DNA of 64,000 nt from an uncultured Planctomycetales bacterium. GTDB lineage: Bacteria > 4484-113 > JAFGCY01. A program made the translations under genes and the position numbers. The stretch is from assembly GCA_964512635.1 (NCBI GenBank), contig CAZEJB010000004.1:51822-115821 (forward strand), read 5' to 3'. How positions within the stretch are numbered: position 1 is the stretch's first letter; each line of letters begins with the position of its first letter. The notes under the pieces were generated by a model. It saw only the letters and a program-made list of their open reading frames with translations. It did no database searches and was not told the DNA's origin. This document shows, in pieces, positions 12,111 to 45,859 of this stretch.

Positions 12111-12139
12111 TTGTTTCACTCCCCACCGCGCTGTATACT
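12111..12139 (+). promoter_or_regulatory. sigma70-like promoter candidate (TTGTTT-17 nt-TATACT) with a ~110-nt leader upstream of the cytidylyltransferase gene
   Basis: -35 TTGTTT at 12111-12116, exact 17-nt spacer, -10 TATACT at 12134-12139. GGAGG RBS at 12236-12240 precedes the ATG at 12251. Confidence 0.3.
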
Positions 12140-12250
12140 GTTTGTGTTGACCACACTCTTCGGCCAACCCGGGCGCAGGCCCGTCTCCATTCCCACACGG
12201 GGCATCTTACCTATTCAAGAGCCAATCTCCAAACCCGGAGGCGTTTCCGC

Positions 12251-12970: not shown

Positions 12971-13026
12971 CCTGGAGAAGGCGTTCGAGCAACAGCCGCC
13001 GCAAGGCGGCTGTTTGCTTTTCATGG

Positions 13027-13632: not shown

Positions 13633-13716
13633 CGCAATGAACTGTGGCATGCGGTATAAAGTCCTGTCTGCTGAGGGTTCTGATGTGGACGCGGGCGCGT
13701 CTAACCAGACTAAATA

Positions 13717-29437: not shown

Positions 29438-30481
29438 CTAGGATTCAAACAGACTGGGTGTTTCCTCGCCATTACTCAGATCGCGGGGTGCGGGAAGGCC
29501 GAAGTATTCATACGCCCGGTAGGTCACCACTCTTCCGCGGGGTGTCTTCTGCAGCAGCCCAAGCTTCAGCAGATAGGGCTCATGAACTTCCGCCAGCACA
29601 TCGCGCTCCTCATGGAAGACCGCGGCCAGGGTGTCGAGCCCCACAGGTCCGCCGCCGAAGCGGTCCATAATGGCTTTCAGGATCTCCCGGTCCATGCGAT
29701 CCAGTCCCAGTGCGCTGATTCCGAGTGCCCCCAGCCCGCTGACGCAGGTATTCAGGTCGATGTTTTCGCTGCCATTGACCTGGGCGAAGTCGCGCATGCG
29801 TCGAAGCAGTCTGAGCGCAATGCGCGGTGTACCCCGGCTATGTTCGGCGAGATGCTGGCGGGCCTCATCGTCTATGCTCATGCCAAGAGCCGGGGCAGCG
29901 CGCAAGATGATGCGAGAGAGCTCTTCCGGAGTATAGAACTCCAGGTGGAAGAGCACGCCAAAACGGTCGCGCAGGGGTGCGCTGAGCAGGCCGGAGCGCG
30001 TTGTGGCTCCCAGCAGCGTAAAGGGCTCCAGGGGCAGGCTGATAGTCCGCGCTCCCGGCCCGGTGCCGGTCACGATATCGACCCGGAAGTCTTCCATCGC
30101 GCTGTAGAGAGTTTCTTCCACTCCACGGGGCAGCCGGTGGATCTCGTCGATGAACAGAGTCTGACCGGGAGCCAGTCCGCTGAGAATAGCCACCAGATCG
30201 CCGGGGCGCTCCAGCAGGGGCCCGGCGCTGACAGCCAGACTGGTATCCATTTCGGCTGAAATCAGATGGGCCAGCGTCGTCTTACCCAGACCTGGAGGAC
30301 CGCTGAATAGAATGTGCTCCAGCGCTTCTCCGCGCATTCGGGCCGCCGCGATCATGATTCGCAGGTTGCTGACAAGTCCTTCCTGGCCGATAAAGTCGTC
30401 AAGACGCCGCGGGCGCAAAGAAACAAACTCGGCATCCTCGCGGTGGGCCTGGTATCGCAGAACCTGATCAGCGCTGTCCAA
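29438..30481 (-). CDS. ruvB: Holliday junction branch-migration ATPase RuvB
   Basis: Walker A GPPGLGKTT, Walker B LFIDEIHRL, sensor/arginine motifs and a RuvB winged-helix C-terminus. Confidence 0.9.
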   Translation of the reverse strand: MDSADQVLRYQAHREDAEFVSLRPRRLDDFIGQEGLVSNLRIMIAAARMRGEALEHILFSGPPGLGKTTLAHLISAEMDTSLAVSAGPLLERPGDLVAILSGLAPGQTLFIDEIHRLPRGVEETLYSAMEDFRVDIVTGTGPGARTISLPLEPFTLLGATTRSGLLSAPLRDRFGVLFHLEFYTPEELSRIILRAAPALGMSIDDEARQHLAEHSRGTPRIALRLLRRMRDFAQVNGSENIDLNTCVSGLGALGISALGLDRMDREILKAIMDRFGGGPVGLDTLAAVFHEERDVLAEVHEPYLLKLGLLQKTPRGRVVTYRAYEYFGLPAPRDLSNGEETPSLFES

Positions 30482-30483
30482 AA

Positions 30484-31161
30484 CTAGACTCCCGGTCCCG
30501 AGTCGGCCGACGGGCCTTGAGGGTCCGGCGCGTGATGGCTCGCCGGGGATTTGTCCGGCGGGGCGGATCCCGGAGCAGGCTCGGTTGGAGTGCCGGGGTG
30601 CAACTGGGCCTGCATTGAGCCAAGACGCTCCCGCCGCCGCCGCCGCCGCTCGGCAGCCGGGCTGAGCTCCCCGTCCTCCCCAACTTCCTCGGGCTCGTCT
30701 TCCTCGGGGATCATGCCGCCGATCGCACGTTCAAACAGCAGCACGCCGTTCAGATGATCAAACTCGTGCTGAAGAACCCTCGCCATGAAGCCATCGAAAC
30801 GCTGCTCATGCTCGTGAAAGTCCAGATCATGAAACTTCAGCACAATGGCCAGGTGCCGTTCCACATTAGCCACCCAGCCCGGAATGCTCAGGCAGCCTTC
30901 GCGGGCGACATGCGTTTCATTAGAGACGGCGGTGATTTGTGGGTTGATGTAGCCGCGTACTTCCTCCGTCTCCGGGTTCATAGCGACAAAAAAGCGAATG
31001 CCCTTACCCACTTGCGGGGCGGCCAGTCCAACACCGATGTCCTGCATCGTCTCGCGCATGTGCTCAAAGAGCTGACGAATCTCGCCAAGCTCACGCTTTT
31101 CCACGCGGCGACAAGGCCGGGTGAGGATTTTGTTGGGTGCGATTACGATCGGCAAAGCCAT
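30484..31161 (-). CDS. def: peptide deformylase with ~70-aa C-terminal low-complexity extension
   Basis: PDF motifs: motif 1 GVGLAAPQVG, motif 2 EGCLSIPG, motif 3 HEFDHLNG. The extension is acidic, then Arg-rich, then Pro-rich. Confidence 0.85.
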   Translation of the reverse strand: MALPIVIAPNKILTRPCRRVEKRELGEIRQLFEHMRETMQDIGVGLAAPQVGKGIRFFVAMNPETEEVRGYINPQITAVSNETHVAREGCLSIPGWVANVERHLAIVLKFHDLDFHEHEQRFDGFMARVLQHEFDHLNGVLLFERAIGGMIPEEDEPEEVGEDGELSPAAERRRRRRERLGSMQAQLHPGTPTEPAPGSAPPDKSPASHHAPDPQGPSADSGPGV

Positions 31162-31245
31162 ACAAGTGAATTATAACCTAGCCATATGTAAAGTATCGTT
31201 GACTAAGTCTAATATTGAATATTGCCTGAAGGCACAAACACCCTC

Positions 31246-32583
31246 ATGCCGCTGAGGGGTTGGCGCTGGTATGCCTGGCTGATGGCTGGACGCCATGGTG
31301 GTCGCGAGGCCGCCCGCAGATTCCATGAACTGGAGCGCAGCCAGTGGCTGGACGCGCAGGAACTCAGGCGGTGCTGTGAAGATAAGCTGCGCGATCAGCT
31401 GGTCTTTGCGGCCGCGCATGTACCGCATTATGGCCATCTGGGCCCCGAACCGAACCTGCATGCCTTTCCTGTGCTGACCCGGACCACGCTGCAAAGGAAC
31501 CTCCGAAGCCTCACGTCTCCTCTGGCGACAGCCCGGCGCTCCTGGCGGCTGAACTCCAGCGGATCCAGCGGTGTTGTGGTCAGTGTATTGCGGGACCGAC
31601 AAACTCAAAGCTGGGCGACAGCCTGTGCCTGGCGCGGCGACTGCTGGGGAGCAGATCTCCAGCCAGAGATGCGACAAGTCAGCCTGCTGAGCAATATCGG
31701 GAACATTGTAGGAAGCCGACGCGCACTCAGCCCGGCGGGAGCCTGGCTCCACAACCGCTTCGTACTTGACGGCATGCATCTGAGTGTCGATCGAACTCGT
31801 ATACTGCTGAAACAGATCAGTGAGCTTCAGCCTGAGGTGCTATCCGGGTATCCCAGCGTCCTGTTGGTTCTGGCTCGGATTGGCCAGCTTTGTGGATTCT
31901 CCGCTCCGAAGCTCAAAAAAGTCCTTCCAACGGCCGAGACCTGCAGCCGCGAGGAGGCTCAGGAATTGGAGCTGTTTTTTGGCGCACCGGTCCTGCAGCG
32001 CTACGGCTCTCATGAATTCAGCGCCATGGCCCATCAGTGCGAACACGGTTCATGGCACTGGCATAGCGAGGTACTTAAGGTTGAGGTCCGTGCGCCGGAC
32101 GGTTCAATCCGGTCAGAAGGCAGAGGCAGCCTGCTTTGCACTTCTCTGGCAAACCAGTCCTTCCCGCTGGTGCGCTATGAGATCGGTGATGAGGTCGATC
32201 TAACTCCTGTCGCCTGTCCCTGCGGTCGAGGACTGCCTACGTTTTCTACAATTGAGGGACGAACCAAGGACTATGTCTATTGCCCTGATGGCAGCTGGAT
32301 CAGCGCACATGCCTTTCTTGCAGTCCTAAGACGTCTGCCGCTGCTGCAATTCCAGCTGATCCAGGAACAGCCGGATATGTTGCACCTGCTGCTAGTAGCA
32401 GAAGGGGTAGTTCCGCAGCCACAACTTGATTGGATCGCAGCAACTTTCTCAGAGATTCATGATGGCAGATTAGGACTCAGGATCCTGCAGGTCGAAGAAC
32501 TGGAACGAAGTCCTGGGGGCAAGCTGCTGCGCATGATCAGCCGAATACCTGAGAATCTGCTTTCCGGAGGAACACCGCAGTAG
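31246..32583 (+). CDS. PaaK/CapK/F390-synthetase-family adenylate-forming enzyme, array paralog 1
   Basis: VPHYGHLG (cf. PaaK VPMYRRKF), P-loop-like SSGSSGVVVSV, and PLVRYEIGDEVDLTPVACPCGRGLPTFSTIEGR. ATG at 31246 gives MPLRGWRWYAWL matching the other paralogs; track TTG at 31222. Confidence 0.7.
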   Translation: MPLRGWRWYAWLMAGRHGGREAARRFHELERSQWLDAQELRRCCEDKLRDQLVFAAAHVPHYGHLGPEPNLHAFPVLTRTTLQRNLRSLTSPLATARRSWRLNSSGSSGVVVSVLRDRQTQSWATACAWRGDCWGADLQPEMRQVSLLSNIGNIVGSRRALSPAGAWLHNRFVLDGMHLSVDRTRILLKQISELQPEVLSGYPSVLLVLARIGQLCGFSAPKLKKVLPTAETCSREEAQELELFFGAPVLQRYGSHEFSAMAHQCEHGSWHWHSEVLKVEVRAPDGSIRSEGRGSLLCTSLANQSFPLVRYEIGDEVDLTPVACPCGRGLPTFSTIEGRTKDYVYCPDGSWISAHAFLAVLRRLPLLQFQLIQEQPDMLHLLLVAEGVVPQPQLDWIAATFSEIHDGRLGLRILQVEELERSPGGKLLRMISRIPENLLSGGTPQ

Positions 32584-32640
32584 CAGCCTTCGAACCAGCG
32601 GGCCGCCCTTCGCAATTGATGTCTTGCAGCTTAGGCGATA

Positions 32641-33984
32641 ATGGGGCGGGGCAAAATGGGATTTCGCACCCTCATTTGGAAATGGAAAGCCGGCCTGGAC
32701 GGCAACCCGGTCTTTTCACGCTATGACAGCCTGATGCAAAGCCAGTGGTTTGTGCCATCAGCATTGCGTGAAATGACCGAAGATGCACTGCACAAGGTTC
32801 TGGCACATGCCGCAAAGACAGTGCCGTATTACAAACGGCGCGGCGCCGAGCCCGCATCTATTGACTCCTTCGGCGTGCTCAGCCGTGACCAGTTGATCAA
32901 TGGCTATGCAAATCTGCAATCAAACCAGCCGGGACCCATGCCGCATTGGCCAACCAGCTCCAGCGGTTCCTCCGGCCAGCCGGTTACAGTTGTACTAGAT
33001 AAGGAATGCAACAGCTGGAGGACAGCCAGCGCCTGGCGCGGCGATACTTTCGGCACCGGATTGAGCCCCGATGCAAGGCAGCTTGCCATCTGGGGTAACC
33101 CGATGGAAGTTAAGCTCACACGACGCCTCTTCCAGCGCTTGCTGAACTACTATCACAATCGATTCATCGTTGATGGCTTCACTATCACCCCTGAATCGGT
33201 CCGTGAGATTCATCAGCGCATGCACCAGTTGCGACCAAAAATCCTGTACGGCTATCCCGCGTCGCTGCATGGCTTTGTGTTGAGCGCTCGCGAGCAGAAC
33301 CTTGAACCAATTCCTGTCTGGCGCTTGATGACTACCGGTGAGCAGCTCAATGAGACGCAAAAGGAAGCCATCGGCAATTACTTCGGAGTTAAGGTCTGCG
33401 AGCGCTACGGCAGCCGCGAGTTTGGCTCTATGGCACACCAGTGCGAATATGGCACCTGGCACATCCACCAGGAGCACCTGCACTTTGAGGTGCGTTTACC
33501 CGATGGGCGGATCAGCGACAGCGGCACCGGAGACCTGCTGGTTACCAGTCTGCACAATTACACCATGCCGCTGATCCGTTACGACATCGGCGATATGGCT
33601 GACCTGACACCCGCCGAATGCCAATGCGGTCGAGGCCTGCGCACATTCACCAGTCTGCTTGGACGGCCCAGCGAGTTTATCTATACGCCCAGCGGCGTCT
33701 GGATCAATGCCAACCACTATCACGTGCTGCTGCGCGATGAGCCGGTGCGGCAGTTCCGATTCATCCAGGACACTCCCGGCGAGCTGCGTATGCTGATCGT
33801 CCCGCGGGACGAGATGACGATGGAACGGCTTGAACTGCTGCGTCGTCAAGGCGAAGTGATCGCAAAAAATGAACTCAAGCTGCATCTGGAAGTCGTTGAC
33901 CAGATTGATCCGCTGCCGAACGGTAAAAGCCCCGGTGTGCTGAATCTGCTGCCAAGGCCGGCTCTGCCGGGACTTCTGAGCTAA
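32641..33984 (+). CDS. PaaK/CapK/F390-synthetase-family adenylate-forming enzyme, array paralog 2
   Basis: TVPYYKRRG, SSGSSGQPVTVV, PLIRYDIGDMADLTPAECQCGRGLRTFTSLLGR. Stop TAA at 33982-33984 overlaps the stop of paralog 3. Confidence 0.7.
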   Translation: MGRGKMGFRTLIWKWKAGLDGNPVFSRYDSLMQSQWFVPSALREMTEDALHKVLAHAAKTVPYYKRRGAEPASIDSFGVLSRDQLINGYANLQSNQPGPMPHWPTSSSGSSGQPVTVVLDKECNSWRTASAWRGDTFGTGLSPDARQLAIWGNPMEVKLTRRLFQRLLNYYHNRFIVDGFTITPESVREIHQRMHQLRPKILYGYPASLHGFVLSAREQNLEPIPVWRLMTTGEQLNETQKEAIGNYFGVKVCERYGSREFGSMAHQCEYGTWHIHQEHLHFEVRLPDGRISDSGTGDLLVTSLHNYTMPLIRYDIGDMADLTPAECQCGRGLRTFTSLLGRPSEFIYTPSGVWINANHYHVLLRDEPVRQFRFIQDTPGELRMLIVPRDEMTMERLELLRRQGEVIAKNELKLHLEVVDQIDPLPNGKSPGVLNLLPRPALPGLLS

Positions 33985-35294
33985 CGCCTGCTGACCAGGT
34001 TAATCACGTGTGGATTCTTGCCGCTGGGAAGGGGTTCAATGCTCTCTACCAGTCGAAGGTCCACCCTAATCTGCTCTCCATGCAGGCTGGCAAAATCGGC
34101 CAGCAGGTTGCGACGCATGTCTGAGGTCAGCTCTTGCAGGCCCTGCAGTTGCAGCTCGAGGTGATCCGGGGCATCCTGGATGATCCTGAACCTCTCCAGC
34201 TTGAGCTGACGCAGGAAGTTCGTATAGGCCAGTGAGCTGATCAGCCGGCCGTCCGGGATGCTGATGTGTTCCGCGACCCGGCCTTCAATGCTGCTGAAAG
34301 TCGGCAGTCCGCGTCCGCAGTTGCAAGGCACTGGCGTCAGGTCGACGATATCGCCGATGTCGTAGCGCAGCAGGGGCATTGCGCGGTTACTCAGGGTGGT
34401 GCACAACAGGTGGCCCTTCCCGGAGCCATTGATGGCACCGTCGGACGACTGGACCTCAACCACAAAATTCTCACTATGCCAGTGCCAGGTACCCAGCTCG
34501 CACTGGTGAGCCATAGTGCCGATCTCACGGCTGCCGTAGCGCCCAAGTACAGGGCAGCCAAAGAAGTCCTGGAGCTGCACCTGCGTTTGTGGGCTGCAAT
34601 GCTCAGCGGTGGGAATCACTTTCTCCACAATTGGCGCAGCCAGACCGAGTCTCTCGCTGATACTGGCAAAGGCACTCAGCGCTGAGACATAGCCGTAAAT
34701 CAAAGCGGGCTTAAGCTGCCTGATACGAGCGTGGACGTGACGTACGCTTTCCTCATCCATTACAAAACAGTTGAGCAGGTAGCGGTTACGGTAAAAGGCG
34801 GACAGGGCCTCCAGCCATGGTGGACGCGGCGCGAGATCCCGTGAGTTCCCCCACAGGGCCACTTGCCGCGCACTGGACTGCAGGTTTGTACCCCAGGGGT
34901 CGGCGCGCAGAGCGGCTGCATGCCGCCATGCTGCGCTTTCCATGTCATAGACCACTGTCACGGGCTCGCCGGTGCTGCCAGAAGAACTGGCGCGGTGCAG
35001 ATGAGTGTGGCTGGCCGCGGCCGGCTGCAGGCTGCTGCCCAGCCGGCCGAGTTCCTGTCGTCCCAGCACCGGCAAGTCTGCCAGGCTTAGCTGGCTTTGG
35101 CGGTCGGCAAGGCTGTTGTAAAAGGGGACTTCGCGTGCCGCGAACTCAAGGATCTGTGACAATCGCTCGCGCTGATACTGCTGCAGCAGGGGGCTTTCCC
35201 ACCATTGCGATTCAACCAGACGGTCGTAACATGCCGCAGCAAGCCGCCCGGCCTCACCACCGAACACCTGCCACGCCAGCCACCGCCAGTCCAT
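33981..35294 (-). CDS. PaaK/CapK/F390-synthetase-family adenylate-forming enzyme, array paralog 3
   Basis: MDWRWLAWQ N-terminus, EVPFYNSLA, SSGSTGEPVTVV, PLLRYDIGDIVDLTPVPCNCGRGLPTFSSIEGR. Confidence 0.7.
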   Translation of the reverse strand: MDWRWLAWQVFGGEAGRLAAACYDRLVESQWWESPLLQQYQRERLSQILEFAAREVPFYNSLADRQSQLSLADLPVLGRQELGRLGSSLQPAAASHTHLHRASSSGSTGEPVTVVYDMESAAWRHAAALRADPWGTNLQSSARQVALWGNSRDLAPRPPWLEALSAFYRNRYLLNCFVMDEESVRHVHARIRQLKPALIYGYVSALSAFASISERLGLAAPIVEKVIPTAEHCSPQTQVQLQDFFGCPVLGRYGSREIGTMAHQCELGTWHWHSENFVVEVQSSDGAINGSGKGHLLCTTLSNRAMPLLRYDIGDIVDLTPVPCNCGRGLPTFSSIEGRVAEHISIPDGRLISSLAYTNFLRQLKLERFRIIQDAPDHLELQLQGLQELTSDMRRNLLADFASLHGEQIRVDLRLVESIEPLPSGKNPHVINLVSRR

Positions 35295-35341
35295 ACCAGT
35301 TCAATATAGCCGTAACGGAAGGCCGCGGCAAACCATGACTA

Positions 35342-36679
35342 TCAACCAGCATTGACCAGGCGACTGTGCAGACGGTTTACTACATAGGGGCTTTTGCCGC
35401 TGGGCAGGACAGGAATAGTCTCTACCTGCTGCATCTCGAAGCTGAAGTCTGCGCCCAGAACCTGTCTGAAGTGCTCGCGGATCGGTTCCAGCTCCGAGGC
35501 CAGCAGCTCACGCTCCGATTGCATCAGGAAGGTCATCCGGCCTTCGTCCTCGATGATGAACCGATACTTCACCAGGGGCAGATGCTGAAAGAAGCTGTTG
35601 AATGTGCACAGGTTGATCCAGCGTCCGTCGGAACACTTGATCAAGTCTGAGACCCTCCCTTCCATGCTGCAAAAAGTCTGCAGGCCGCGGCCGCATGAGC
35701 AGTCCACGGGCGTCAGATCCACGATGTCGCCGATTTCATATCGAATCAGCGGCATCGCCCGGCTGATCAGGCTTGTACAAAGCAGTCGCCCGCGGCCCTC
35801 AGTAGAGATGCTCCCATCTTCGCGCTGGACCTCCAGAAGAATCAGTTCACTGCTCAGGTGCCAGGTTTTGTGTTCGCAGCGACTGGCGATCAGTCCCATT
35901 TCATTAGATGCATAGCGGTCTGCAACAGAGCAACCAAAGAACTCCTCCATCCGGGAGCTGTCTTCGAGGCTGCATTGTTCGCCGCAAGGCACGACCTTTT
36001 CAAAACGCCAGGGCGAAATCCCGGCCCGGCGTCCAAAGTGCATGAATGCCTGTATAGCTGTGGTTGGTCCATAGAGCAACCGCGATCTGGTCCAGGCAAA
36101 ATGCTTGTTGAGCTCAGTGGCTCGTGCCTCGTTCATTTCGAAGCAGTTAAAGATGTAGCGATTGAAGAGGCGGTCAAAGAGCTTTGCCTTGATGCCCCTG
36201 ACTTTTCCTGAATCGCGCGCGCTGGCCCAAAGCCCTGCCTGTGGATCTGTTGGACGCAGGCTGGTCCCCCACAGGTCGCCGCGCAGGAGAGCGGCCCGTC
36301 GCAAGGCCTGCGCTGCAGCATCGACATAGACCGTGACCGGTTCGCCAGTGGAGCCCCCGGTGTTCCAGCGCGTGATTCGCCCTTCGTTCTGGTGCGGCGC
36401 CAGCAGCTCTTCAGCATGCCTGCGCAGCATTGCGCGTGTGATGACGGGGAAAGCTTCGAGTTTTGGGCTCAGATAGAGATTTCTGTAGTACGGAACAGCG
36501 CTCACCGCAAAATGCAATGTCTCTTCCAGGCGCTGTGCCCGTAGTTGTTCCAGTTGGCCCGGTGTCAACCACTGGCTTTGCAGCAACTGGTCGTAAGCGA
36601 GCGCGGTCGACCGCCAGATTTCGGGGTCATATATCTGCCAGGCCAGCCAGCGCCAGTCCACAGCTGAATCATAGCGCAA
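35342..36679 (-). CDS. PaaK/CapK/F390-synthetase-family adenylate-forming enzyme, array paralog 4
   Basis: VDWRWLAWQ, AVPYYRNLY, TGGSTGEPVTVY, PLIRYEIGDIVDLTPVDCSCGRGLQTFCSMEGR. Confidence 0.7.
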   Translation of the reverse strand: MRYDSAVDWRWLAWQIYDPEIWRSTALAYDQLLQSQWLTPGQLEQLRAQRLEETLHFAVSAVPYYRNLYLSPKLEAFPVITRAMLRRHAEELLAPHQNEGRITRWNTGGSTGEPVTVYVDAAAQALRRAALLRGDLWGTSLRPTDPQAGLWASARDSGKVRGIKAKLFDRLFNRYIFNCFEMNEARATELNKHFAWTRSRLLYGPTTAIQAFMHFGRRAGISPWRFEKVVPCGEQCSLEDSSRMEEFFGCSVADRYASNEMGLIASRCEHKTWHLSSELILLEVQREDGSISTEGRGRLLCTSLISRAMPLIRYEIGDIVDLTPVDCSCGRGLQTFCSMEGRVSDLIKCSDGRWINLCTFNSFFQHLPLVKYRFIIEDEGRMTFLMQSERELLASELEPIREHFRQVLGADFSFEMQQVETIPVLPSGKSPYVVNRLHSRLVNAG

Positions 36680-36691
36680 CTGTGATAGGGA

Positions 36692-37972
36692 CTATTGGAC
36701 GCTGCTGTTGTCGCGCTTCAGGAGATTCACGATGTGCGGGCTCTTGCCGCTGACCAATGGAGGGATTTCTTCGAGCTGCTCAAAGTCGACCCGGATCTGC
36801 CCTTGGAACAGTCGCTCAAAGCTCTCCAGTAGCTGGGCCCTGATCGAGCCATCAATCTGCCCTTGATACTCGAACTGCAGTGTGATGTGGTCAATGCTGT
36901 CCTGCACGATTCTGAACTTGCTGAACGGAGCAAGACGCAGGAAGCGTGTGAAGGCCATGCTGGAAATCCAGCGGCCGTCGGGACAGTAGACATGCTCGGC
37001 TACACGGCCTTCAATACTGCGGAATGTGGGCAGGCCGCGGCCGCAGGGGCAGTCGACGCCGTCGAGGTCCAGCAGGTCGCGGATGTCATAACGTATCGTC
37101 GGCATCAGACGATTGCTGAGGCTGGTACAAAGCAGGCTTCCCTGGCCGCTCTCGCTGATGCTGCCGTCAGGATGCTGAACCTCCAGGTAGAGGTGCTCGC
37201 AGTTCACATGCCAGTTGCCGTATTCACACTGGTGTCCCATCGGGCCCATCTCGCGTGACGCGTAACGTTCCAGTACTGCCGAGCCCTTGAAGAAATCCTG
37301 GATGTCGGCGCGGGCCTCTGGCGTGCACTGCTCGGCCGTTGGCATGACTTTTTCGATGTAAGGCGGGCGGAGGCCAAGTTCCCGGGCAAAGCGGATGTAG
37401 CCGACAAGCGAAGAAACATAGCCATAGAGAAACCGCGGTCGCCGGCGCAGAAGTTCGCGATGGATTCGCTGCGCCTGCTGTTGATCGATGATCCAGCAAT
37501 GGATGATCCAGCGGTTGTAAAGCCAGTCGTAAGCCCGGCTGCGAAGACTGGCACTCTGGCGTGAATCTCGCGGGTTGCCCCAGAGGCTCACGGTCGGGTC
37601 GGTCGGCCCGAAGCCTGCACCCCAGCTGTCGCTTCGATACAACGCGGCCCTTCGCCAGGCGAAGGTCTGTTCATCAAAATGGATGGTCGCCGGCTCACCT
37701 GTGCTTCCGCTGCTGGTGCCTTCGTAGCGCTTGCCAAGCGGCGGCGTATCAGAGTGCAGTCTGCGGGCCTCACGGGTAATCAGCTGTCGCGACAGGACCG
37801 GGAATTCTCGGATGTCGGCGGAAAGCCCCAGCTCACGGTAATAAGGCACAGTGTTAGCTGCGTGCTCAACAACGCCCCGCAATTGTTCGCGCTGATAGCG
37901 CTGCAGCTCCTCTGTGGGCCACCACTGGCTCTGCAAACACCAGTCGTAGCGCTGCGCAATGTGGCGGGCCAC
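36692..37972 (-). CDS. PaaK/CapK/F390-synthetase-family adenylate-forming enzyme, array paralog 5
   Basis: Shortest N-terminus (lacks the WRWLAWQ motif). TVPYYRELG, SSGSTGEPATIH, PTIRYDIRDLLDLDGVDCPCGRGLPTFRSIEGR. Confidence 0.7.
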   Translation of the reverse strand: MARHIAQRYDWCLQSQWWPTEELQRYQREQLRGVVEHAANTVPYYRELGLSADIREFPVLSRQLITREARRLHSDTPPLGKRYEGTSSGSTGEPATIHFDEQTFAWRRAALYRSDSWGAGFGPTDPTVSLWGNPRDSRQSASLRSRAYDWLYNRWIIHCWIIDQQQAQRIHRELLRRRPRFLYGYVSSLVGYIRFARELGLRPPYIEKVMPTAEQCTPEARADIQDFFKGSAVLERYASREMGPMGHQCEYGNWHVNCEHLYLEVQHPDGSISESGQGSLLCTSLSNRLMPTIRYDIRDLLDLDGVDCPCGRGLPTFRSIEGRVAEHVYCPDGRWISSMAFTRFLRLAPFSKFRIVQDSIDHITLQFEYQGQIDGSIRAQLLESFERLFQGQIRVDFEQLEEIPPLVSGKSPHIVNLLKRDNSSVQ

Positions 37973-38050
37973 ATCGCCGCCGTAGATTTGCCAGGCTGTC
38001 CAGCGCCAGTCCAGACTGCGAATGATAGCGCAGTGCAGGCGACAGACTGC

Positions 38051-39412
38051 TTATGGATTGGCGGCCGAGGGCACAGGCAATCCGGCACTTTGACGGTGCA
38101 GCATGTTTATGACGATTGGGTCTTTTCCGTTGGATAAGGGTTCGATTCGTTCCACGACCTGAATTCGGAGTTTCATGCTGCTTCCTATATGCTTGAGAAA
38201 GAGTGCTTCGACCTGCAGGGCTAAGTCCTCCGGGACCGGCTCATGACCTTGCACCTGTATCGTAACCAGGGACTCAGTCTCCTGAATAACCCGATATTTG
38301 CTAAAGGCCATGCGCCGGAGTGGCATGATGAAGGACCAGGGACTCAGCCAGTGGCCATCTGACGTGAAGAGCTGCTCGGAGATTCGCCCGTCGAGGCCAG
38401 TCATCGTCGGCAGGCCGCGTCCACAGGGGCAGTGCACCGGCGTCAGGTCAACCATGTCGCCGATCTCGTATCGAATGAGCGGCATGGCACGGTTGTCCAG
38501 ACTTGTCGCCAGCAGGCTGCCGTATCCCGATCTGGCGATTGCGCCGTCCTGGCGCTTTACCTCCAGCAGCAGGTTCTCGCTGTGCAAATGCCAGGTGCCA
38601 TGCTCGCAGCGGTGGGCAATGGGGCCCAGTTCAGCGGCACCGTAGCGGTCGACAACGAGGCAACCGAAGAACGCTCGAAGTTCTTCCTTCGCCGGCTCCA
38701 GGCAGGTTTCGGATGTCACGATCACCTTGCTCATTGGCGGCGGATATGCTCCCTCGGCCTTCGCAAAGCGGGCGTAAGCTTCAACCACGGAGGCATAGCC
38801 GACCAGCATGCGAGGTCGCAGTTTCACAAGCAGAGTATTCAGTTCCTTTGCCCGGACCGGGTCAAGATCCACGCGGTTGAACACGAATCGGTTGTAGACA
38901 AAGTCATACAGCCTCGCCCGCAGATTCTGCTGGCTGCCGGCGTCACGCTCGCTGACCCACAACACGGCCTGTCGATCCGTCGGACGCAGATCCGTTCCCC
39001 ACGCGTCCCCGCGGAGCATTGCTGCCCGCCGCCAGGCCTGGGTGAGCGAATCGACCCTTGTGCTGACGGGCTCGCCGGAGGACCCGGCGCTTTGCCAGTG
39101 ATAGATTTTGGCGGATGGTTGCGGATCTGCCAGATGGCGGGCATAGTCGGGCCGGAAGCCCTGACGGTCAACAACTGGAAAATCCTCCAGGCGAGGAGCC
39201 AAGCCGAGCTCTCGATAGAAGGGCACTGTCTCAAGGGCATACTTCAGCAGGCGCTCAAGTTTCTGATTCTGAAGATCCAGCAGACGACCTGGCGAATACC
39301 GCTGGCTTTCAAGCAACAAGTCATAGCAAGCAGCCGCCTGTCGCCAGGTTTCGCCTCCATGCATCTGCCAGGCCAGCCATCTCCAATCCACAGCGCAGCA
39401 ATGATACGCCAC
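38051..39412 (-). CDS. PaaK/CapK/F390-synthetase-family adenylate-forming enzyme, array paralog 6
   Basis: VDWRWLAWQ, TVPFYRELG, SAGSSGEPVSTR, PLIRYEIGDMVDLTPVHCPCGRGLPTMTGLDGR. Confidence 0.7.
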   Translation of the reverse strand: MAYHCCAVDWRWLAWQMHGGETWRQAAACYDLLLESQRYSPGRLLDLQNQKLERLLKYALETVPFYRELGLAPRLEDFPVVDRQGFRPDYARHLADPQPSAKIYHWQSAGSSGEPVSTRVDSLTQAWRRAAMLRGDAWGTDLRPTDRQAVLWVSERDAGSQQNLRARLYDFVYNRFVFNRVDLDPVRAKELNTLLVKLRPRMLVGYASVVEAYARFAKAEGAYPPPMSKVIVTSETCLEPAKEELRAFFGCLVVDRYGAAELGPIAHRCEHGTWHLHSENLLLEVKRQDGAIARSGYGSLLATSLDNRAMPLIRYEIGDMVDLTPVHCPCGRGLPTMTGLDGRISEQLFTSDGHWLSPWSFIMPLRRMAFSKYRVIQETESLVTIQVQGHEPVPEDLALQVEALFLKHIGSSMKLRIQVVERIEPLSNGKDPIVINMLHRQSAGLPVPSAANP

Positions 39413-39471
39413 TCAATACAATCCTGAATCTGCGGCAGACGCAGAATGTATCCGTGCGCTATAACTCAGAT

Positions 39472-40359
39472 ATGGCGGAACGCATCCTCCTCATCGACTC
39501 CACCGGGCTGATCTTCCGGGCCTACTGGACGATCAAACCCCTTTCGGCGCCGGACGGCACCCCCGTCCATGCGGTGTTTGGCATGCTGCGAATCATGATG
39601 AAGGTCTTCAAGGACCGTCAGGCCACCGCCAGCGCGATGATCTTCGACGCCGGTATGGATACCTTCCGGCGCGAGATGTATGCCGACTACAAGGCTAACC
39701 GGCCGGCACCGCCGGACGATCTGCGGCCCCAGTTCGGTCTTTCCATTGAGGCCTGCCGCTGCACGGGCGCACCGGTCTTTGCCGAGAAGGGCTTTGAGGC
39801 CGACGACATTATTGCTACCCTGCGCGACCGGGCTGTGGAACGCGGGATGGCCGTGACGATAGTTACCGGCGACCGCGATATCCTGCAGCTCCTGGCCCCC
39901 AATGTTGAAGTGCTGATCATGAAGGGTGGCGGCGAATTTGACCCATACACTCCCGAACGCTTTGTCGAGGAGTATGGCTTCCCGGTCGACCGCTTTGTGG
40001 ACTACAAGGCGCTGATGGGCGACACCAGCGACAACATCCCGGGCCTGCCCGGCGTCGGTCCGAAGACGGCGCAAAAGCTGATAGAGACCTACGGCAAGCT
40101 TGAGCACATCTATGCCAACCTGGAGTTCGTTAAGCCCGACAAGCTGCGCGGTCTGCTGAAAGAGAATCAGGAAAAGGTCTTCATGTACCGCGAGCTATGC
40201 ACGCTGCACCACACTGTGCCGGTTGAGTACCATTTCGACCAGCGTGTGATGCCGGACTTCGGCTCAGATGCCCTGGCCGAGAAGCTGACTGGCATGGGAT
40301 TTACCCGCATCGGCGAAGACGCGAAGAAGCTGGGGGATCTGCAGCCTAACACGTCCTGA
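39472..40359 (+). CDS. stand-alone 5'-3' exonuclease (Pol I N-terminal/FEN-like domain)
   Basis: MAERILLIDSTGLIFRAYWTIKP, then GFEADD, TGDRDILQL and GIPGVGPKTA (H3TH) motifs. ~295 aa with no polymerase domain. The track ORF start at 39115 is an artefactual upstream extension. Confidence 0.8.
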   Translation: MAERILLIDSTGLIFRAYWTIKPLSAPDGTPVHAVFGMLRIMMKVFKDRQATASAMIFDAGMDTFRREMYADYKANRPAPPDDLRPQFGLSIEACRCTGAPVFAEKGFEADDIIATLRDRAVERGMAVTIVTGDRDILQLLAPNVEVLIMKGGGEFDPYTPERFVEEYGFPVDRFVDYKALMGDTSDNIPGLPGVGPKTAQKLIETYGKLEHIYANLEFVKPDKLRGLLKENQEKVFMYRELCTLHHTVPVEYHFDQRVMPDFGSDALAEKLTGMGFTRIGEDAKKLGDLQPNTS

Positions 40360-40597: not shown

Positions 40598-41632
40598 TCA
40601 TCCCCCGCTGATAGCCAGGCGCTTCATCCCGCCGCGCTGCAGCAGCTGGGTCAGGACTACCAGCACCAGCACCCACAGCACCGCGCGACCGACCATGATC
40701 CAGGCCTCAAGCCCGCTGACGCGGCCAAGATAGATCTGCATCGGCTGATAGAACATGTGCTGAGTCGGCAACAGCTTGAAAATGGCTGTGACGCTGTCCG
40801 GGAAGTAGCTCAGCGGAATGACCATCCCGCCGGCGATGTTCATGACCATGCGAATACCCATGCGGATGCCATTGTTGTACTCGAGGTAGAAACTGAGCAG
40901 ACCGATGGCGTAGTCCAGGATGAAGTTAATCGCATAACCCAGCACAATCGCGAGGAAGAAGGGCAGGATAGCTCCTGGCGGGGGTGTCTTCATATCGCCA
41001 AAGAGATTGAAGACCAGCAGCAGCGGCAAGGTGGCGAAACACAGGCGGAAGAAAGTGCGGCCGATTCCCTGGCCCAGGTAGTTAGCCATCAGGTTCAGCG
41101 GCTTGAGCAGGTCCATGGCCACCTGACCTTCGCGAACCGCCGCGCCCAGGTTGCGCCCCGTGGGAGTCATGTAAAAGGTGTTAAGTGTCCAGGAGACAGT
41201 CACGTAGGTGATGATTGTCTGCTGATCGAAGCCGCCCATCTGGCCGCCGCCGGCATAGACCGCGGCGAAAACAAAACGGTACATCAGGATGATGATCGGA
41301 TAGGAGAGGAAGACGAAGGCGACGCCGGCAGGATAGGCGAGATAGGAATTGAAGCCGACCTGCGCCAGGGCAAAGACTGAGGCCAGGGTGCTGCGCAGGC
41401 CATGCCGTGCCGGCCGCTGCGGCGGCTGGATGGTCAGGCCTGACGCGGATACACCGCCCCCCGGATTGTAGGGCGCAGGCCTGCCTGCACCAGCTGTGGC
41501 GTTCACAATAAGAGGATACAGCGTTCCCCCAGGGGCGTCGCATAGTCGCCGCCCGTCTTCATCTTGCTGGGTCTTCCCGCATTCGCGCGATAGTTGGAAG
41601 CATCGTAGGGGCGCGTGGAGCGCGCCCGGCAA
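40598..41632 (-). CDS. ABC-2-type transporter permease-like membrane protein (N-terminus over-extended in track)
   Basis: Body has 6 TM helices of ABC-2 permease type. The first ~75 aa are Pro/Gly-rich and unlikely to be coding, so the true start is probably near 41400. No cognate ATPase nearby. Confidence 0.4.
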   Translation of the reverse strand: MPGALHAPLRCFQLSRECGKTQQDEDGRRLCDAPGGTLYPLIVNATAGAGRPAPYNPGGGVSASGLTIQPPQRPARHGLRSTLASVFALAQVGFNSYLAYPAGVAFVFLSYPIIILMYRFVFAAVYAGGGQMGGFDQQTIITYVTVSWTLNTFYMTPTGRNLGAAVREGQVAMDLLKPLNLMANYLGQGIGRTFFRLCFATLPLLLVFNLFGDMKTPPPGAILPFFLAIVLGYAINFILDYAIGLLSFYLEYNNGIRMGIRMVMNIAGGMVIPLSYFPDSVTAIFKLLPTQHMFYQPMQIYLGRVSGLEAWIMVGRAVLWVLVLVVLTQLLQRGGMKRLAISGG

Positions 41633-41643
41633 CCTAATCTATA

Positions 41644-42603
41644 TCACGGGCGCTCGTGGAACCAGTTTAAGAAGCTGACATACGCAATAAGCACCGTAAA
41701 GAGAAACACTGGCGTGAACAGAAGAGCGAAGCCCTTCCGGAAGCTCGCCCGATATGGCGGGCGGAGACAGTTAAGCGCGGCAGGGCGTTCAGTGGCGTCT
41801 ATAAGCTGCTGACGCTGCTCTTCCAGCTTCAGGGAGCCAGCCAGCCCATGTCCGATTGATTTCAGCAGGGCAGCGTGAAAAATCAGCCGCAGCTCACTCT
41901 TGCGGGTTGTACTGTAGACCAAACAGTGCATGCCCCACATGACGAAAAAAATGGTCAGAACTATGCCGAGGTAGTCAATGCCTGTGAGCGCCCCTGGCAG
42001 GTCTTCGCCGCTGTAAGTTTCTGCCCAAAACAGCGAGATGCAAAATGCCGCTGTCAGTACGGCATTGGAGGCGAGCATGGCGTAAAGAGCTAGCTTCTTG
42101 CGCCTGCCTGGAGCAAGGAATTCGAGGTTGCAACTTACTTCGCTCAAGCGTTTTGTAAGGGAAGCCCTTGAGCTCGGGAGCTCACCTTCCAGCCGCAGAG
42201 CGCGCCACCCCAGCTTACGAAGGGAGTCAAAATCGAACTGGCCAGACATGATTCTGAAAGCGATTAGATCTACCTGCTGATGGTCGATCACGAACTTATG
42301 CACGAGCATAGAAGAGAGCCAGGGCAGGACAAGCAGAACAAAAGCTGTTAATGCCAGGCAAACTGTCCAGGACAAAGGCCCAAGTTCATCCAGGTCTGAA
42401 GGTTGGACCGTATCCCAAAATAATGCGAAGAGCAGACTGCCCGCCTGCCAGCCGTACCACATACCCCAGTTCTTCGCAGTATCCAGGGGATCGGCGAGCG
42501 CGGACTTTTCCTTCATCGCCACCAGCGTCTGCTGAAGTTCCGCTGACGAGAAGGTCGAAGCTGGAGTAGCTTTCTCTGAGGATGAAGTCGCGAGGTCGCT
42601 CAC
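41644..42603 (-). CDS. hypothetical integral membrane protein
   Basis: 319 aa with several TM helices. No motif recognised. Confidence 0.35.
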   Translation of the reverse strand: MSDLATSSSEKATPASTFSSAELQQTLVAMKEKSALADPLDTAKNWGMWYGWQAGSLLFALFWDTVQPSDLDELGPLSWTVCLALTAFVLLVLPWLSSMLVHKFVIDHQQVDLIAFRIMSGQFDFDSLRKLGWRALRLEGELPSSRASLTKRLSEVSCNLEFLAPGRRKKLALYAMLASNAVLTAAFCISLFWAETYSGEDLPGALTGIDYLGIVLTIFFVMWGMHCLVYSTTRKSELRLIFHAALLKSIGHGLAGSLKLEEQRQQLIDATERPAALNCLRPPYRASFRKGFALLFTPVFLFTVLIAYVSFLNWFHERP

Positions 42604-43964
42604 GGCTTCGCGCCTTCTTTGTTCACTGGCACCACGTACAGGCCCGCGTAGGTCGGCTCGCGGACGATGAAGCCGCTGCCATCGCGCAGCGGTTGCCAGT
42701 TGTGCTGCACGACAGGTAGTTCACTGTCGGCTTCCAGCGGCTCGGCCAGGGCGGAGAGGTCAGGCCGAGCCACGCTCCAGTCGACAGTGAAGCTGCTCCA
42801 GTCCACCTTGCCATACTCAATGCTGGCTCCGCGATCACGGCTGAACAGGCAGGCGCCGTCGTCGAAACTGCAGAAGCAGCGCCAATAGCCACCGTCGGGG
42901 ACTTCTTTCGAACTGCCATCTGTCCGGACAAGCAGCTGCCGCGGCCCGGCCAGGGCCAGCAGCATTGCGTCCGGCAGCACCCACTCGCTGAAGATGGTCC
43001 AGTCTGTATCGCTGGCCGGCTTAAACCGGCCGAGTTCCCCGCCGCTGTCAAAGCTGCTGAACATGGTCGCCATGTTGTCCAGTTCCTGATAGCTGAAGTT
43101 GTCGCCTTGCGGACACTTGTCAAAGGATTCCGCGTTGTCGAGTCCCGGCAACAGGCCACGATTACCGCTGGCCAGCTCGACAAAGTTATAGTGGTCCTGC
43201 TCCCAGACACTGGCTTCGCTGCTGGAAACCAGGCTGGCGTAGTGCGCCGCGGTCGGCTCGCCGGGGATGAAATACAGGGCAAACAAGCGCTGGCTGTCCT
43301 GGCTGAAAGCTAGCTGTGGACCGCCATCTGTCTCTTCGGCGAGGGCAATGCAGCGGCCATCGCCGCCAGAGCTGCTGCAGATAACCACTGCATTGCAGCG
43401 CGCGGGGTAGTCCTGGTTTGGAACCGACGTTGTAACCAGCCGGCTGACAGCCACCCGCTTGCCGTCAGGGCTGACCAGCAGGCTGTTGCCGGCTAAGGAA
43501 TAAGCGTCTTCGCTGAGCCCCCAGCCCTCTGCTGCCGGGTCCCAGCCGGCTTCCCAGATCCGGGCGTCTGTACCGTCGCTTGCAACGCTGAAATAGCGTC
43601 CGTAGGAGTCGCGGCAAAGCACAAGTCCGTCCGTCAGCTCGCCGAACTCCATCACGTCGGCCGCGATCAGCTTTGCGGCCCCGCTGGCCTCCAGGGCGAC
43701 CAGACCCTGGCTGATCGTAGGCATTTCGCCGGCTGCTTCCGGCTGGGCAGATGAATCGGTCTTCAGATACATCTGCCGGTCCTTTAGCGCCTTGGCCTGT
43801 CCCACAGCACCATCATTACCTCCCGGAGGCGGTGGAGGTGGCATGCTGGGTTTTGAGCTTTGCTCCCCAAACAGGTATTCGCAGGAGCCAGTCAGCGCGG
43901 TCGCCATGAACAACCAGGGCAGGCCGACCAGCAGGAACAGCACCAGCAGGGCTTTGCGCAGCAT
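42600..43964 (-). CDS. exported hypothetical protein with poly-Pro linker
   Basis: Probable start MLRKALLVLFLLVGLPWLFMATALTGS (signal peptide). PPPPPPGG linker. Gly/Asp/Ser-rich body, possibly a beta-propeller. Confidence 0.4.
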   Translation of the reverse strand: MLRKALLVLFLLVGLPWLFMATALTGSCEYLFGEQSSKPSMPPPPPPGGNDGAVGQAKALKDRQMYLKTDSSAQPEAAGEMPTISQGLVALEASGAAKLIAADVMEFGELTDGLVLCRDSYGRYFSVASDGTDARIWEAGWDPAAEGWGLSEDAYSLAGNSLLVSPDGKRVAVSRLVTTSVPNQDYPARCNAVVICSSSGGDGRCIALAEETDGGPQLAFSQDSQRLFALYFIPGEPTAAHYASLVSSSEASVWEQDHYNFVELASGNRGLLPGLDNAESFDKCPQGDNFSYQELDNMATMFSSFDSGGELGRFKPASDTDWTIFSEWVLPDAMLLALAGPRQLLVRTDGSSKEVPDGGYWRCFCSFDDGACLFSRDRGASIEYGKVDWSSFTVDWSVARPDLSALAEPLEADSELPVVQHNWQPLRDGSGFIVREPTYAGLYVVPVNKEGAKP

Positions 43965-43971
43965 TGCCGGA

Positions 43972-45294
43972 TTATAGCGAGGCGACGTCCTCTGCCACCG
44001 CAATCTCCACCGGCTGAAGAACTTCACGCAGCTCGCCGTAAAGCGGGAACTCGGCTGCCAGCTCAGCCACGCCGGCCCTTACGCTGGCTTGGGTCTCTTC
44101 ACTGACTTCGCCGCGCAGTGCCTGGCCGATCAGCGCGCCGACTCGCTTCATCTCGGGCTCCTTGAAGCCGCGGGTGGTCAAGGCCGGAGTGCCGAAACGA
44201 AGGCCAGAGGCGATGAAGGGCTTTTCAGTGTCGTAAGGAATCGTATTCTTGTTGCAGGTAATGTCCACAGCGTCCAGGCGCTCCTCGGCCACCTTACCGG
44301 TTAACCCCAGGCTGCCCTTCACATCCACCAGCATCAGATGATTGTCAGTACCGCCAGAGACAATGCGCAGGCCCTCTTCCTGCAAAGCCAGGGCCAGGGT
44401 CTGGGCGTTCTTGACGATCTGGCGCTGGTAGCCCTGGAATTCGTCGCCAGCCGCCAGCTTGAAGCAGACAGCCTTGGCTGCGATCACGTGTTCCAGCGGG
44501 CCGCCCTGCTGGCCGGGGAAGACCGCACTGTCGATGGCCTTGGCGTGCTCCTTCTTGCAAAGAATGAGGCCGCTGCGCGGGCCGCGCAGGGTCTTGTGAA
44601 CAGTCGTGGTAACCACATCGGCATAGGGGACCGGGCTCGGGTGCAGGCCAGCGGCGACAAGGCCAGCAATATGGGCCATGTCGACCATCAGCAGCGCGCC
44701 GATTTCATCGGCGGTCTCGCGGAAGAAGGCGAAGTCCAGCAGGCGCGGGTAGGCGCTGGCGCCGACCACGATCAGCTTGGGTTTGTGCGCGCGGGCGACC
44801 TCGCGAACCTGCTCATAGTCGATCTGCTCGGGGCCGTCGGGTGCGTCGGCGGGACGCACGCCATAGGCCACGACGTTGTAAAGCTTGCCCGAGAGGTTGA
44901 GCGGGTGGCCGTGGGTCAGGTGGCCGCCATGCGCCAGCTCCATGCCCATAATGGTGTCGCCCGGCTGCAGAAAGGCCATGTAGGCGCTGGCGTTAGCCTG
45001 GGCGCCGCTGTGCGGCTGGACGTTGGCGTGCTCGGCGCCGAACAGCGCCTTAGCGCGCTTGATTGCCAGAGACTCAGCTATGTCGACGAACTCGCAGCCG
45101 CCGTAATAGCGCTTCTTCGGGTAGCCTTCGGCGTATTTATTCTGCATCGGCTGGCCCAGCGCTTCGAGGACGCTGTAGTCCACGAAGTTCTCGCTGGCGA
45201 TCAGCTCCAGCTTGGCGTGCTGGCGCTCGGTTTCAGCGCAGATTGCGTTGTAGATCTCGGGGTCCACGTCCCGAAGGTGCGAAAACCACTGCAT
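43972..45294 (-). CDS. glyA: serine hydroxymethyltransferase
   Basis: [38 protein letters not shown]-terminus. PLP-lysine region [15 protein letters not shown]. ~440 aa. ATG at 45294. Confidence 0.9.
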
Positions 45295-45442
45295 GTATAT
45301 AAGGATAGCGGATACCCGGCAGGCTCGGTACCGGAGGCAGCCAGTGGCAGTATTCACTCACCCACGGTCAAGTGCCTGTAGGTGTCACATTCCCTGTTGC
45401 CATGGTCTCCAACGCAGGTTTCGGGTATACTGCTTTCCCCAC

Positions 45443-45528
45443 GCGGAAGTGGTGGAATGGCAGACACGCCAGGTTGAGGGCCTGGTGGCCGCAAGGCCGT
45501 GCGGGTTCAAGTCCCGCCTTCCGCACCA
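45443..45528 (+). tRNA. tRNA-Leu (anticodon GAG)
   Basis: GCGGAAGTGGTGGAATGGCAGACACGCCAGGTTGAGGGCCTGG + long variable arm + GGGTTCAAGTCCCGCCTTCCGCACCA. Acceptor GCGGAAG/CTTCCGC, anticodon loop TTGAGGG, class II tRNA, encoded CCA. Confidence 0.85.
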
Positions 45529-45859
45529 TTCGAACTCCTCTTTCGGTTGGCCTGCCTTCTCAAGGTAAGTTCTTGCCCACTAAGTCAAACACCCTATTCC
45601 TGCGTTCTCAAATGGCGTGTTCCTCTGTCCGTTCCGCAGCTCTTTGGACGCCGCTTCAGGTCGGGCCAGCCTGGCTCACAGCTCTTTCGGGGATTCCGTA
45701 CACCTACAGGAATGATCAGATTCACTGCTCTTGTGCTTGCGTTGTCAAAACTCCATGCATTGGCACTACATATGGTGAGAAGTGCACTATAACGGTTTGA
45801 TTTTGCGGACTACCTTACCGGAACATTTGCCAGTGATTCCTCTCGGTTACAATCCGATT

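Follow-up and report, generated by a model that had tools for sequence, protein, structure and literature searches.

CapK-like ligases, a branch of the PaaK family of adenylate-forming enzymes within the ANL superfamily, are widespread and are routinely mis-named 'phenylacetate-CoA ligase'. The first genetic function in the group was reported in 2026 for VpsH, which is involved in placing glycine onto the Vibrio biofilm polysaccharide (PMC13463779). VpsH, encoded in the vps-I cluster of V. cholerae, is predicted to be related to PaaK and is partly similar in structure to CapK-like proteins; it is genetically required for the addition of glycine to GulNAcA on a bactoprenyl-PP-linked disaccharide, and its authors propose ATP-dependent activation of the carboxylate followed by amide formation (PMC13463779). 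In the related ligases NatL2 and ClxA, an O or N nucleophile takes over the adenylated acyl group directly, with no CoA involved (PMC7204872, PMC12519233). Here we describe six consecutive genes predicted to encode CapK-like ligases (L1 to L6), found in a 64,000-nucleotide stretch of contig CAZEJB010000004.1 from an uncultured Planctomycetales bacterium (assembly GCA_964512635.1; the whole stretch is referred to hereafter as the window). VpsH falls into the same broad phenylacetate-CoA-ligase-like group and its proposed chemistry is the one that we propose for the six enzymes; however, VpsH is a single gene in a complete Wzx/Wzy polysaccharide locus, whereas the window holds an array of six genes with no glycan genes nearby. 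The enzyme family already has a name, tandem multiplication is seen elsewhere in it, and the family context largely explains the genes. What is new is the deep clade of their own that the six form, a copy number above any other seen, and the conservation of a stand-alone position in a housekeeping locus.

The six genes, their family and their fold

Open reading frame (ORF) calls on the window showed that positions 31222-39412 are filled by six paralogous long ORFs of 426-453 aa (Table 1), and alignment confirmed the six-paralog array proposed in an initial annotation of this DNA. Pairwise protein identity among the six is 32-46%, close to the 35-45% first estimated by eye, and codon-aligned nucleotide identity is 46-54%, far from the >95% of an assembly duplication; the best local DNA match between any two copies in a repeat comparison was 61 nt at 84%. 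Given this low copy-to-copy identity at both protein and DNA level, the array is real and old and not an artefact of assembly. An assembly artefact or a recent duplication was ruled out by the nucleotide identity of 46-54% together with the presence of one-to-one orthologs in a second genome, the metagenome-assembled genome (MAG) SJ870 (GCA_020849855.1), whose collinear set of genes also bears out the old, diversified expansion that had been claimed. The genes had been described as lying back to back, and they are indeed consecutive; they are not co-directional, as L1 and L2 are on the plus strand and L6, L5, L4 and L3 on the minus strand, with the two sets converging so that the stop codons of L2 and L3 share 4 bp. 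Spacers between the six genes range from -4 to 78 bp depending on the choice of start codon, which retains the upper value of the 13-78 bp given previously and corrects the lower one.

Probable start codons of two of the genes were placed by comparison with orthologs. That of L1, ATG 31246, is also the start coordinate of the initial annotation and follows the ortholog P0011, whose N-terminus is MPLRGWRW, and L4 read from ATG 36661 matches P0009 in length and start. In L5, the N-terminal motif of the family (DWRW.AWQ), here L-DWRWTAWQIYGGD, lies in frame upstream of GTG 37972 (37972-38014, minus strand). Between this GTG and the in-frame TAA of L6 there is no ATG, GTG or TTG, the only candidate starts being CTG 38014 or ATT/ATC. 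The L5 ortholog in SJ870, P0005 (442 aa), has a normal start (MDWRWLAWQ), and the comparison suggests that the start of L5 is either non-canonical or has recently been lost.

Table 1. The ligase block of the window and the genes bordering it, with orthologs of the ligases in MAG SJ870 (identity at protein level; dN/dS, ratio of nonsynonymous to synonymous substitution rates).
Feature	Coordinates	Strand	Description and evidence	SJ870 ortholog	Identity	dN/dS
RuvB	29438-30481	-	Left flank			
def	30484-31161	-	Peptide deformylase, left boundary, outside the system; Pfam Pep_deformylase, E 1e-43			
L1	31222-32583	+	CapK-like adenylate-forming ligase paralog; 453 aa ORF, probable ATG 31246 giving 445 aa	SJ6 (SJ870 gene 12692-14062)	63%	0.20
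L2	32641-33984	+	CapK-like ligase paralog; 447 aa; ORF, motifs, SJ870 ortholog	SJ5	83-84%	0.10
L3	33981-35294	-	CapK-like ligase paralog; 437 aa; copy with AlphaFold2 model	SJ4	63%	0.22
L4	35342-36679	-	CapK-like ligase paralog; 445 aa ORF, probable ATG 36661 giving 439 aa	SJ3	63%	0.21
L5	36692-38014	-	CapK-like ligase paralog; 426 aa from GTG 37972, CTG 38014 a candidate upstream start	SJ2	81%	0.12
L6	38051-39412	-	CapK-like ligase paralog; 453 aa ORF; SJ870 ortholog	SJ1	75%	0.15
5'-3' exonuclease	39472-40359	+	Right boundary, outside the system; Pfam 5_3_exonuc_N and 5_3_exonuc			

The motifs quoted in the initial annotation are present in all six proteins, which carry VP.Y, a GS.G P-loop, RY(E/D)I(G/R)D, C.CGRGL and GR. 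The core motifs of the ANL superfamily are likewise found in every copy: the P-loop (A3), A5 (Y-G-x-x-E), A7 (Y-x-x-G-D), the A8 hinge (G-R) and the A10 lysine (G-K). In L3 numbering, residues G106 and G109 of the P-loop, Y253, R310, Y311, D315, G338, R339 and the A10 catalytic lysine K426 are invariant in 90 of 90 family sequences, the six ligases included. Since these family-wide invariant residues have been kept, all six look catalytically competent. In a profile alignment, the C-terminal GK of the ligase family aligned with that of PaaK1/2.

A profile built from the 90 family sequences matched PaaK2 (E 1.2e-50), PaaK1 (3.8e-48) and BT_0428 (6.8e-54), as well as ClxA, AjiA1 and NatL2; all matches had E-values of about 1e-44 to 7e-54, and those to the PaaK proteins were full length. 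In searches of NCBIfam, the six proteins gave significant E-values at scores far below threshold to the DVU_1553 AMP-ligase family, BagE/FevW, PaaK, FlxY and F390-related models. The sub-threshold matches, the PaaK2 profile match and the fold matches described below uphold the earlier assignment to the PaaK/CapK/F390 synthetase group (COG1541). The scores were 30.7-39.2 bits against a 646-bit cut-off for the PaaK model (TIGR02155), at most 26.6 bits against 458.7 for F390 synthetase (TIGR03335), at most 53.3 bits against 251.9 for the F390-synthetase-related model TIGR02304, and 65-80 bits against 800 for BagE_FevW. Because their scores fall far under these cut-offs, the six enzymes are neither PaaK nor F390 synthetase. 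Both candidates were rejected on the scores and on gene context: although PaaK and F390 synthetase share the superfamily branch of the six and show profile homology over the full length (E 1e-48 to 1e-50), the window array has neither a paa operon nor a methanogen context.

Structure was modelled for L3 alone of the six. The AlphaFold2 model (predicted local distance difference test score (pLDDT) 93.1, predicted template modelling score (pTM) 0.91) showed a two-domain PaaK-family fold over the full length. In Foldseek comparisons with the PDB, the best matches were NatL2, AjiA1, PaaK1/2, BT_0428 and ClxA, over approximately 400-445 alignment columns, with E 1e-22 to 4e-26 and template modelling (TM) scores of 0.56-0.65 for NatL2, AjiA1, PaaK1/2 and BT_0428; identity in the structural alignments was 18-22%. 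A Pfam scan of the six ligases with a model set lacking CapK_C gave no match, AMP-binding remaining under threshold. In precomputed annotations, PF27533 (CapK_C) is recorded for the clusters containing L2, L3, L4 and L5, where it is marked as weak on contigs, and is not on record for L6 or for most of the SJ870 orthologs. The best NCBI source names carried by relatives read 'phenylacetate--CoA ligase family' and 'capsule biosynthesis protein CapK'. Taken together, these results place the six in the PaaK-like ANL branch (COG1541) and, by prediction, in its CapK-like subfamily, outside PaaK, F390 synthetase and the benzoxazole ligases proper.

The six share with CapK-like proteins (PF27533) a set of motifs that includes C.CGRGLP and a near-invariant Cys-His-Cys-Cys set (C265, H271, C324 and C326 of L3, in E-C-E...H and C-x-C-G-R-G-L), which is at least 90% conserved across the 90 CapK-like sequences and occupies matching columns in each of the six. 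Of this set, the C.CG part is shared by BT_0428, ClxA and AjiA1 and is lacking in PaaK1/2; the complete set may be a structural metal site. Despite the shared motifs, the six form a separate and rare clade with at most 33% identity to the bulk of the family. Comparison of the paralogs with their orthologs identified 34 alignment columns that are fixed within every ortholog group yet hold three or more residues among the paralogs. These include positions 251 and 256, beside the A5 motif, and 355, 358 and 359, just past the hinge, a distribution that fits diverged substrate pockets and counts as weak evidence for them.

Conservation and insertion of the block

MAG SJ870 contains six ligase genes in the same order and orientation and with the same flanks as the window, and its RuvB is 92% identical to that of the window. 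In the phylogenetic tree, the ligases of the two genomes formed clean, collinear one-to-one ortholog pairs, and the duplications are older than the split between the two genomes. The initial annotation had allowed for a rearranged known pathway, should close relatives carry the genes in a canonical capsule or paa locus; in the closest relative, SJ870, the array is stand-alone, and only distant relatives have such genes in glycan loci. The housekeeping flanks (Def, RuvB, exonuclease and serine hydroxymethyltransferase (SHMT)) are 89-95% identical between the two genomes, the exonuclease 94%. The dN/dS of RuvB, Def, exonuclease and SHMT was 0.05-0.06, compared with 0.10-0.22 for the six ligases, at a synonymous divergence (dS) between the window and SJ870 of about 1.2-1.7, which is near saturation for all genes compared. 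On the strength of dN/dS values of 0.10-0.22, the six copies have been kept by purifying selection, but they change at two to four times the rate of their neighbours, a pattern typical of surface-structure genes.

In three more distant relatives (L090, L091 and L092; RuvB 70-74% identical), the exonuclease gene lies directly and divergently beside def-ruvB, with no ligase gene between them. Because the exonuclease adjoins def-ruvB in these genomes, the ligase block is an insertion, taken up in a recent ancestor between the divergently oriented exonuclease gene and def-ruvB. No mobile-element traces or flanking repeats were found at the block, all repeats in the region being the paralogy itself, and the GC content of the block is near the genome background. 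In a further relative with a RuvB 78% identical to that of the window (L089), a HicA/HicB toxin-antitoxin pair (L089 3130-3578) is located immediately downstream of ruvB, and insertions seem to recur in the neighbourhood of def-ruvB in this lineage.

The clade is rare: about nine clusters at 50% identity, among 1.84 billion representatives, score above approximately 315 bits. The CapK-like family as a whole is broad, with about 1,500 clusters at 50% identity matching at E 1e-30 or better, and within this subfamily the six ligases make up a separate, rare and deep clade.

Relatives in glycan loci and possible functions

Relatives were sampled in 80 genome loci and the best 80 metagenome loci listed, at 25-33% identity. 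Approximately three in four of these roughly 160 loci are single-copy, a minority has two copies and a few have three or four, so that the initial view of such genes as normally single holds for about three quarters of the sample and has to be widened to include tandem sets of two to four copies and two-ligase fusions. None of the approximately 160 related loci has six copies or a stand-alone housekeeping context, and a scan of Joint Genome Institute (JGI) metagenomes for further arrays yielded no relative above 32% identity among the best 80 loci listed. Within this sample, the window array is the largest and the most detached from sugar-polymer genes.

Relatives at 25-38% identity reside in capsule, exopolysaccharide (EPS) or O-antigen-type loci, whereas the window array does not. 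Neighbours of 34 single-copy relatives are mostly glycosyltransferases (GT4/GT1 and GT2), Wzy, UDP-glucose dehydrogenase, epimerases, AsnB and methyltransferases. Acidobacterial triplets adjoin genes for DUF3473/polysaccharide deacetylase, Wzy_C, Poly_export, GT2 and sigma-54 regulators, and in the four-copy metagenome locus L150 the ligase genes are interleaved with those for GT4, a PglC-like Bac_transf protein, a PglD-like acetyltransferase, a DegT aminotransferase and a PglF-like dehydratase. These tandem EPS sets (acidobacterial triplets and quadruplets, and L150) and the two-ligase fusions multiply ligase modules as the window array does; the tandem sets, however, sit among glycosyltransferases, deacetylases, Wzy, Wza or Pgl-type genes, which the larger window array does not. 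Among the members of the clade outside the lineage, the nearest (loci L084-086) show the order ligase, Wzx-type flippase, ligase, ligase. The ligase of L088 adjoins a hexapeptide acyltransferase, that of L175 adjoins a methyltransferase, with a GNAT-type acetyltransferase four genes downstream, and the single copy of L087 adjoins trigger factor.

Fusion proteins provide further information on the family. GT2-ligase fusions of about 730 aa (P0024, P0033, P0049, P0082 and some 30 more) are frequent among Myxococcales-type sequences; their GT2 half is N-terminal, with best sub-threshold matches to the polyprenyl-phosphate sugar transferases ArnC, PgfS and PpgS. One protein, P0112 (573 aa), combines a CapK-like ligase with a C-terminal PanD, the aspartate 1-decarboxylase that is a source of beta-alanine, a fusion hinting that beta-alanine is ligated by one or more members of the family. 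At least 15 of the 150 top representative clusters carry two complete ligase modules in one chain, for instance P0250, P0259, P0260, P0262, P0265 and P0267 (approximately 850-1000 aa) and P0268 (1486 aa), and most of these fusions have a recognisable P-loop and/or C.CGR motif in each half. No description of two-module CapK-like fusions was found in the literature searched. The family habitually multiplies its ligase modules, both in tandem genes and within one fused chain.

We favour, with about even confidence, an interpretation of the six as a battery of carboxylate-amine ligases that decorate a surface glycan encoded elsewhere. The family neighbourhoods, the GT2 and PanD fusions, the Wzx-type flippase neighbours and the genetics of VpsH are the reasons for preferring surface-polymer decoration, which is also the best supported of the three readings offered in the initial annotation; the chemistry, the glycan target, the differing specificities and the independence from CoA are what we infer. 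The block is best explained as a six-member, lineage-specific expansion within the CapK-like branch of the PaaK family of adenylate-forming ligases (ANL superfamily). Each enzyme would adenylate a carboxylate with ATP and hand its acyl group straight to an amine, or perhaps a hydroxyl, instead of feeding a CoA-dependent pathway. The most likely substrates would be the sugars of a lipid-linked glycan of the cell surface whose biosynthesis genes lie elsewhere in the genome; possible reactions are the coupling of an amino acid or amine to the carboxylate of a uronic acid, or of a small acid to an amino sugar. The paralogs would differ in the donors or acceptors that they use, or cooperate in pairs. 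Amino-acid and amine decorations alter the charge, antigenicity and matrix properties of surface polysaccharides. Six diverged, intact paralogs in one organism are a natural specificity panel for CapK-like enzymes, which could reveal how the choice of donor and acceptor is encoded and could yield CoA-independent catalysts of amide-bond formation.

Several points weigh against decoration of a glycan. Within approximately 19 kb of the block there is no glycosyltransferase, flippase, polymerase, sugar-nucleotide enzyme or carrier protein, and no glycan locus was found in the 64 kb window or in the 10 kb past its end. The sole sugar-related genes in the region examined encode a cytidylyltransferase (12047-12970), some 19 kb upstream of the block, and a double-GT2 protein at the window end, some 23 kb downstream. 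Identity to the relatives whose context is informative is only 25-38%, and function may have shifted over that distance. The closest solved structures are the small-molecule ester and amide ligases NatL2, AjiA1 and ClxA, and not glycan enzymes, and six decorating ligases would be unusually many for one glycan. To our knowledge, no CapK-like enzyme has been characterised biochemically. The support from VpsH is genetic (PMC13463779), and VpsH is likened to the six by description and not by alignment; beyond the VpsH paper, almost nothing was found in the literature on CapK-like or F390-like ligases in polysaccharide loci.

An unlikely explanation is that the six enzymes work in sequence, with each one adenylating the carboxylate at the growing end and attaching a further amino acid or amine. 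The product would be an oligo-amide or peptide-like chain primed by a sugar, a lipid or a small molecule and made by a logic resembling that of MurC-F or of the non-ribosomal peptide synthetase (NRPS)-independent siderophore (NIS) synthetases on a PaaK-type scaffold. Gene order is strictly conserved between the window genome and SJ870, which speaks for such an assembly line, and the family is prone to tandem copies (two to four in a minority of sampled loci). The two-module fusions, in at least 15 of the 150 top clusters, imply cooperating ligase modules, the PanD fusion points to amino-acid building blocks, and a self-contained system would account for the lack of partner genes. On the other hand, no product, primer or export gene is identifiable, the sequences show no order of action, and two-module fusions are equally well explained as covalent versions of the PaaK-type homodimer, the form seen in the PaaK1/2 structures. 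As a self-contained, template-independent system, a possibility that we consider quite unlikely, PaaK-type modules would act as hetero-pairs or in a fixed order to build an oligo-amide or peptide-like chain, either free or on an envelope sugar or lipid. It seems similarly doubtful that Mur-ligase/NIS-like logic would operate here on a scaffold not known for it, with the two-module fusions as smaller versions. Were the copies indeed to act cooperatively or in sequence, they would constitute a new route to peptide-like chains.

A role in small-molecule metabolism, with no part in glycan synthesis, is also rather improbable. The six would then activate aryl or acyl acids, either for catabolism, as PaaK-like CoA ligases, or for a secondary metabolite in the manner of NatL2, AjiA1, ClxA or BagE. 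The best PDB matches by sequence and structure are NatL2, AjiA1, ClxA and PaaK, and the top sub-threshold NCBIfam matches include BagE/FevW, the DVU_1553 family and FlxY; NatL2 and ClxA make esters and amides without CoA (PMC7204872, PMC12519233). However, all scores are far under the family cut-offs, and identity to NatL2, AjiA1, ClxA and PaaK is only 18-22%, whereas the much closer relatives (25-38%) sit in glycan loci. The ligases of the benzoxazole and bagremycin pathways (NatL2, AjiA1, ClxA and BagE) have the closest solved structures and share the whole fold with L3, but their identity is 20-22%, their substrates are aromatic amino-hydroxy acids and the pathway partners that always accompany them are absent near the window array. 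No paa genes, amidohydrolase, aminohydroxybenzoate (AHBA) or 3-hydroxyanthranilate (3-HAA) synthesis genes, thioesterase, polyketide synthase or NRPS, or regulator adjoin the block; the 64 kb window contains no paa genes at all, and no secondary-metabolite locus lies near the block.

We consider it very unlikely that the block is another kind of system in a housekeeping locus, whether a ligase-based island for conflict or defence, of a so far uncharacterised kind, or ligases that modify proteins or peptides. Insertion among conserved housekeeping genes and evolution faster than that of the flanks are both typical of defence islands, but neither the six ligases nor the three adjacent membrane proteins matched PADLOC-DB 2.0, the block contains no nuclease, toxin, sensor or mobile-element gene, its repeats reflect paralogy only, its GC content is near background and the wider family is not associated with defence genes. 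Decay of redundant duplicates without distinct functions, which the degenerate P-loop tail of L1 (SSGSSGVV) and the want of a canonical start codon for the conserved N-terminus of L5 might suggest, is highly implausible, as all six frames are intact in two genomes at dS of about 1.2-1.7 with dN/dS of 0.10-0.22, all catalytic invariants are retained and the duplications predate the split of the two genomes.

Genes around the block

The flanks named in the initial annotation, ruvB-def on the left and the 5'-3' exonuclease on the right, were confirmed by coordinates and Pfam matches. The genes left of the block are those for a peptidase M3, a member of the metalloenzyme superfamily, two functionally unassigned proteins, RuvB and Def; to the right are the exonuclease gene, an operon (SHMT, one unknown protein and two ABC-2-type permeases), a helix-turn-helix (HTH) protein and Mfd. 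The remainder of the window consists of general housekeeping genes, and the 10 kb past its end contain riboflavin genes and a P-type ATPase gene. For RuvB, named matches at about 55-62% identity are a mix of Nitrospirae and Firmicutes.

The 414 aa ORF (39115-40359, plus strand) overlapping L6 results from an artefactual extension of the exonuclease at its N-terminus; the real start is near 39472, giving 295 aa, the same length as the SJ870 ortholog. A 213 aa antisense ORF (39466-40107, minus strand) is spurious.

After the SHMT gene, an apparent operon (40598-44027, minus strand) encodes a 475 aa protein and then two paralogous ABC-2-type permeases. The 475 aa protein has one N-terminal transmembrane segment and no family match; only one of the two permeases matches PF06182, and no ATPase gene is adjacent. 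The observation that no partner genes lie in the block stands for the block itself, to which we add the permease pair, located 1.2 kb past the exonuclease gene and outside the ligase block. The 475 aa protein and the permease set are kept in SJ870 and are absent beside the exonuclease in relatives without the ligase array.

An Rfam scan of the window detected four tRNAs only, with no riboswitch or leader near the block, and a promoter and terminator scan gave counts no higher than chance. A 142 aa ORF (45372-45800) overlaps one of the tRNA genes (45443-45525, plus strand) and is probably not a gene. The host lineage is uncultured and represented by MAGs only; the window sequence is also present in the Logan assemblies of SRR14271333 and SRR14271334.

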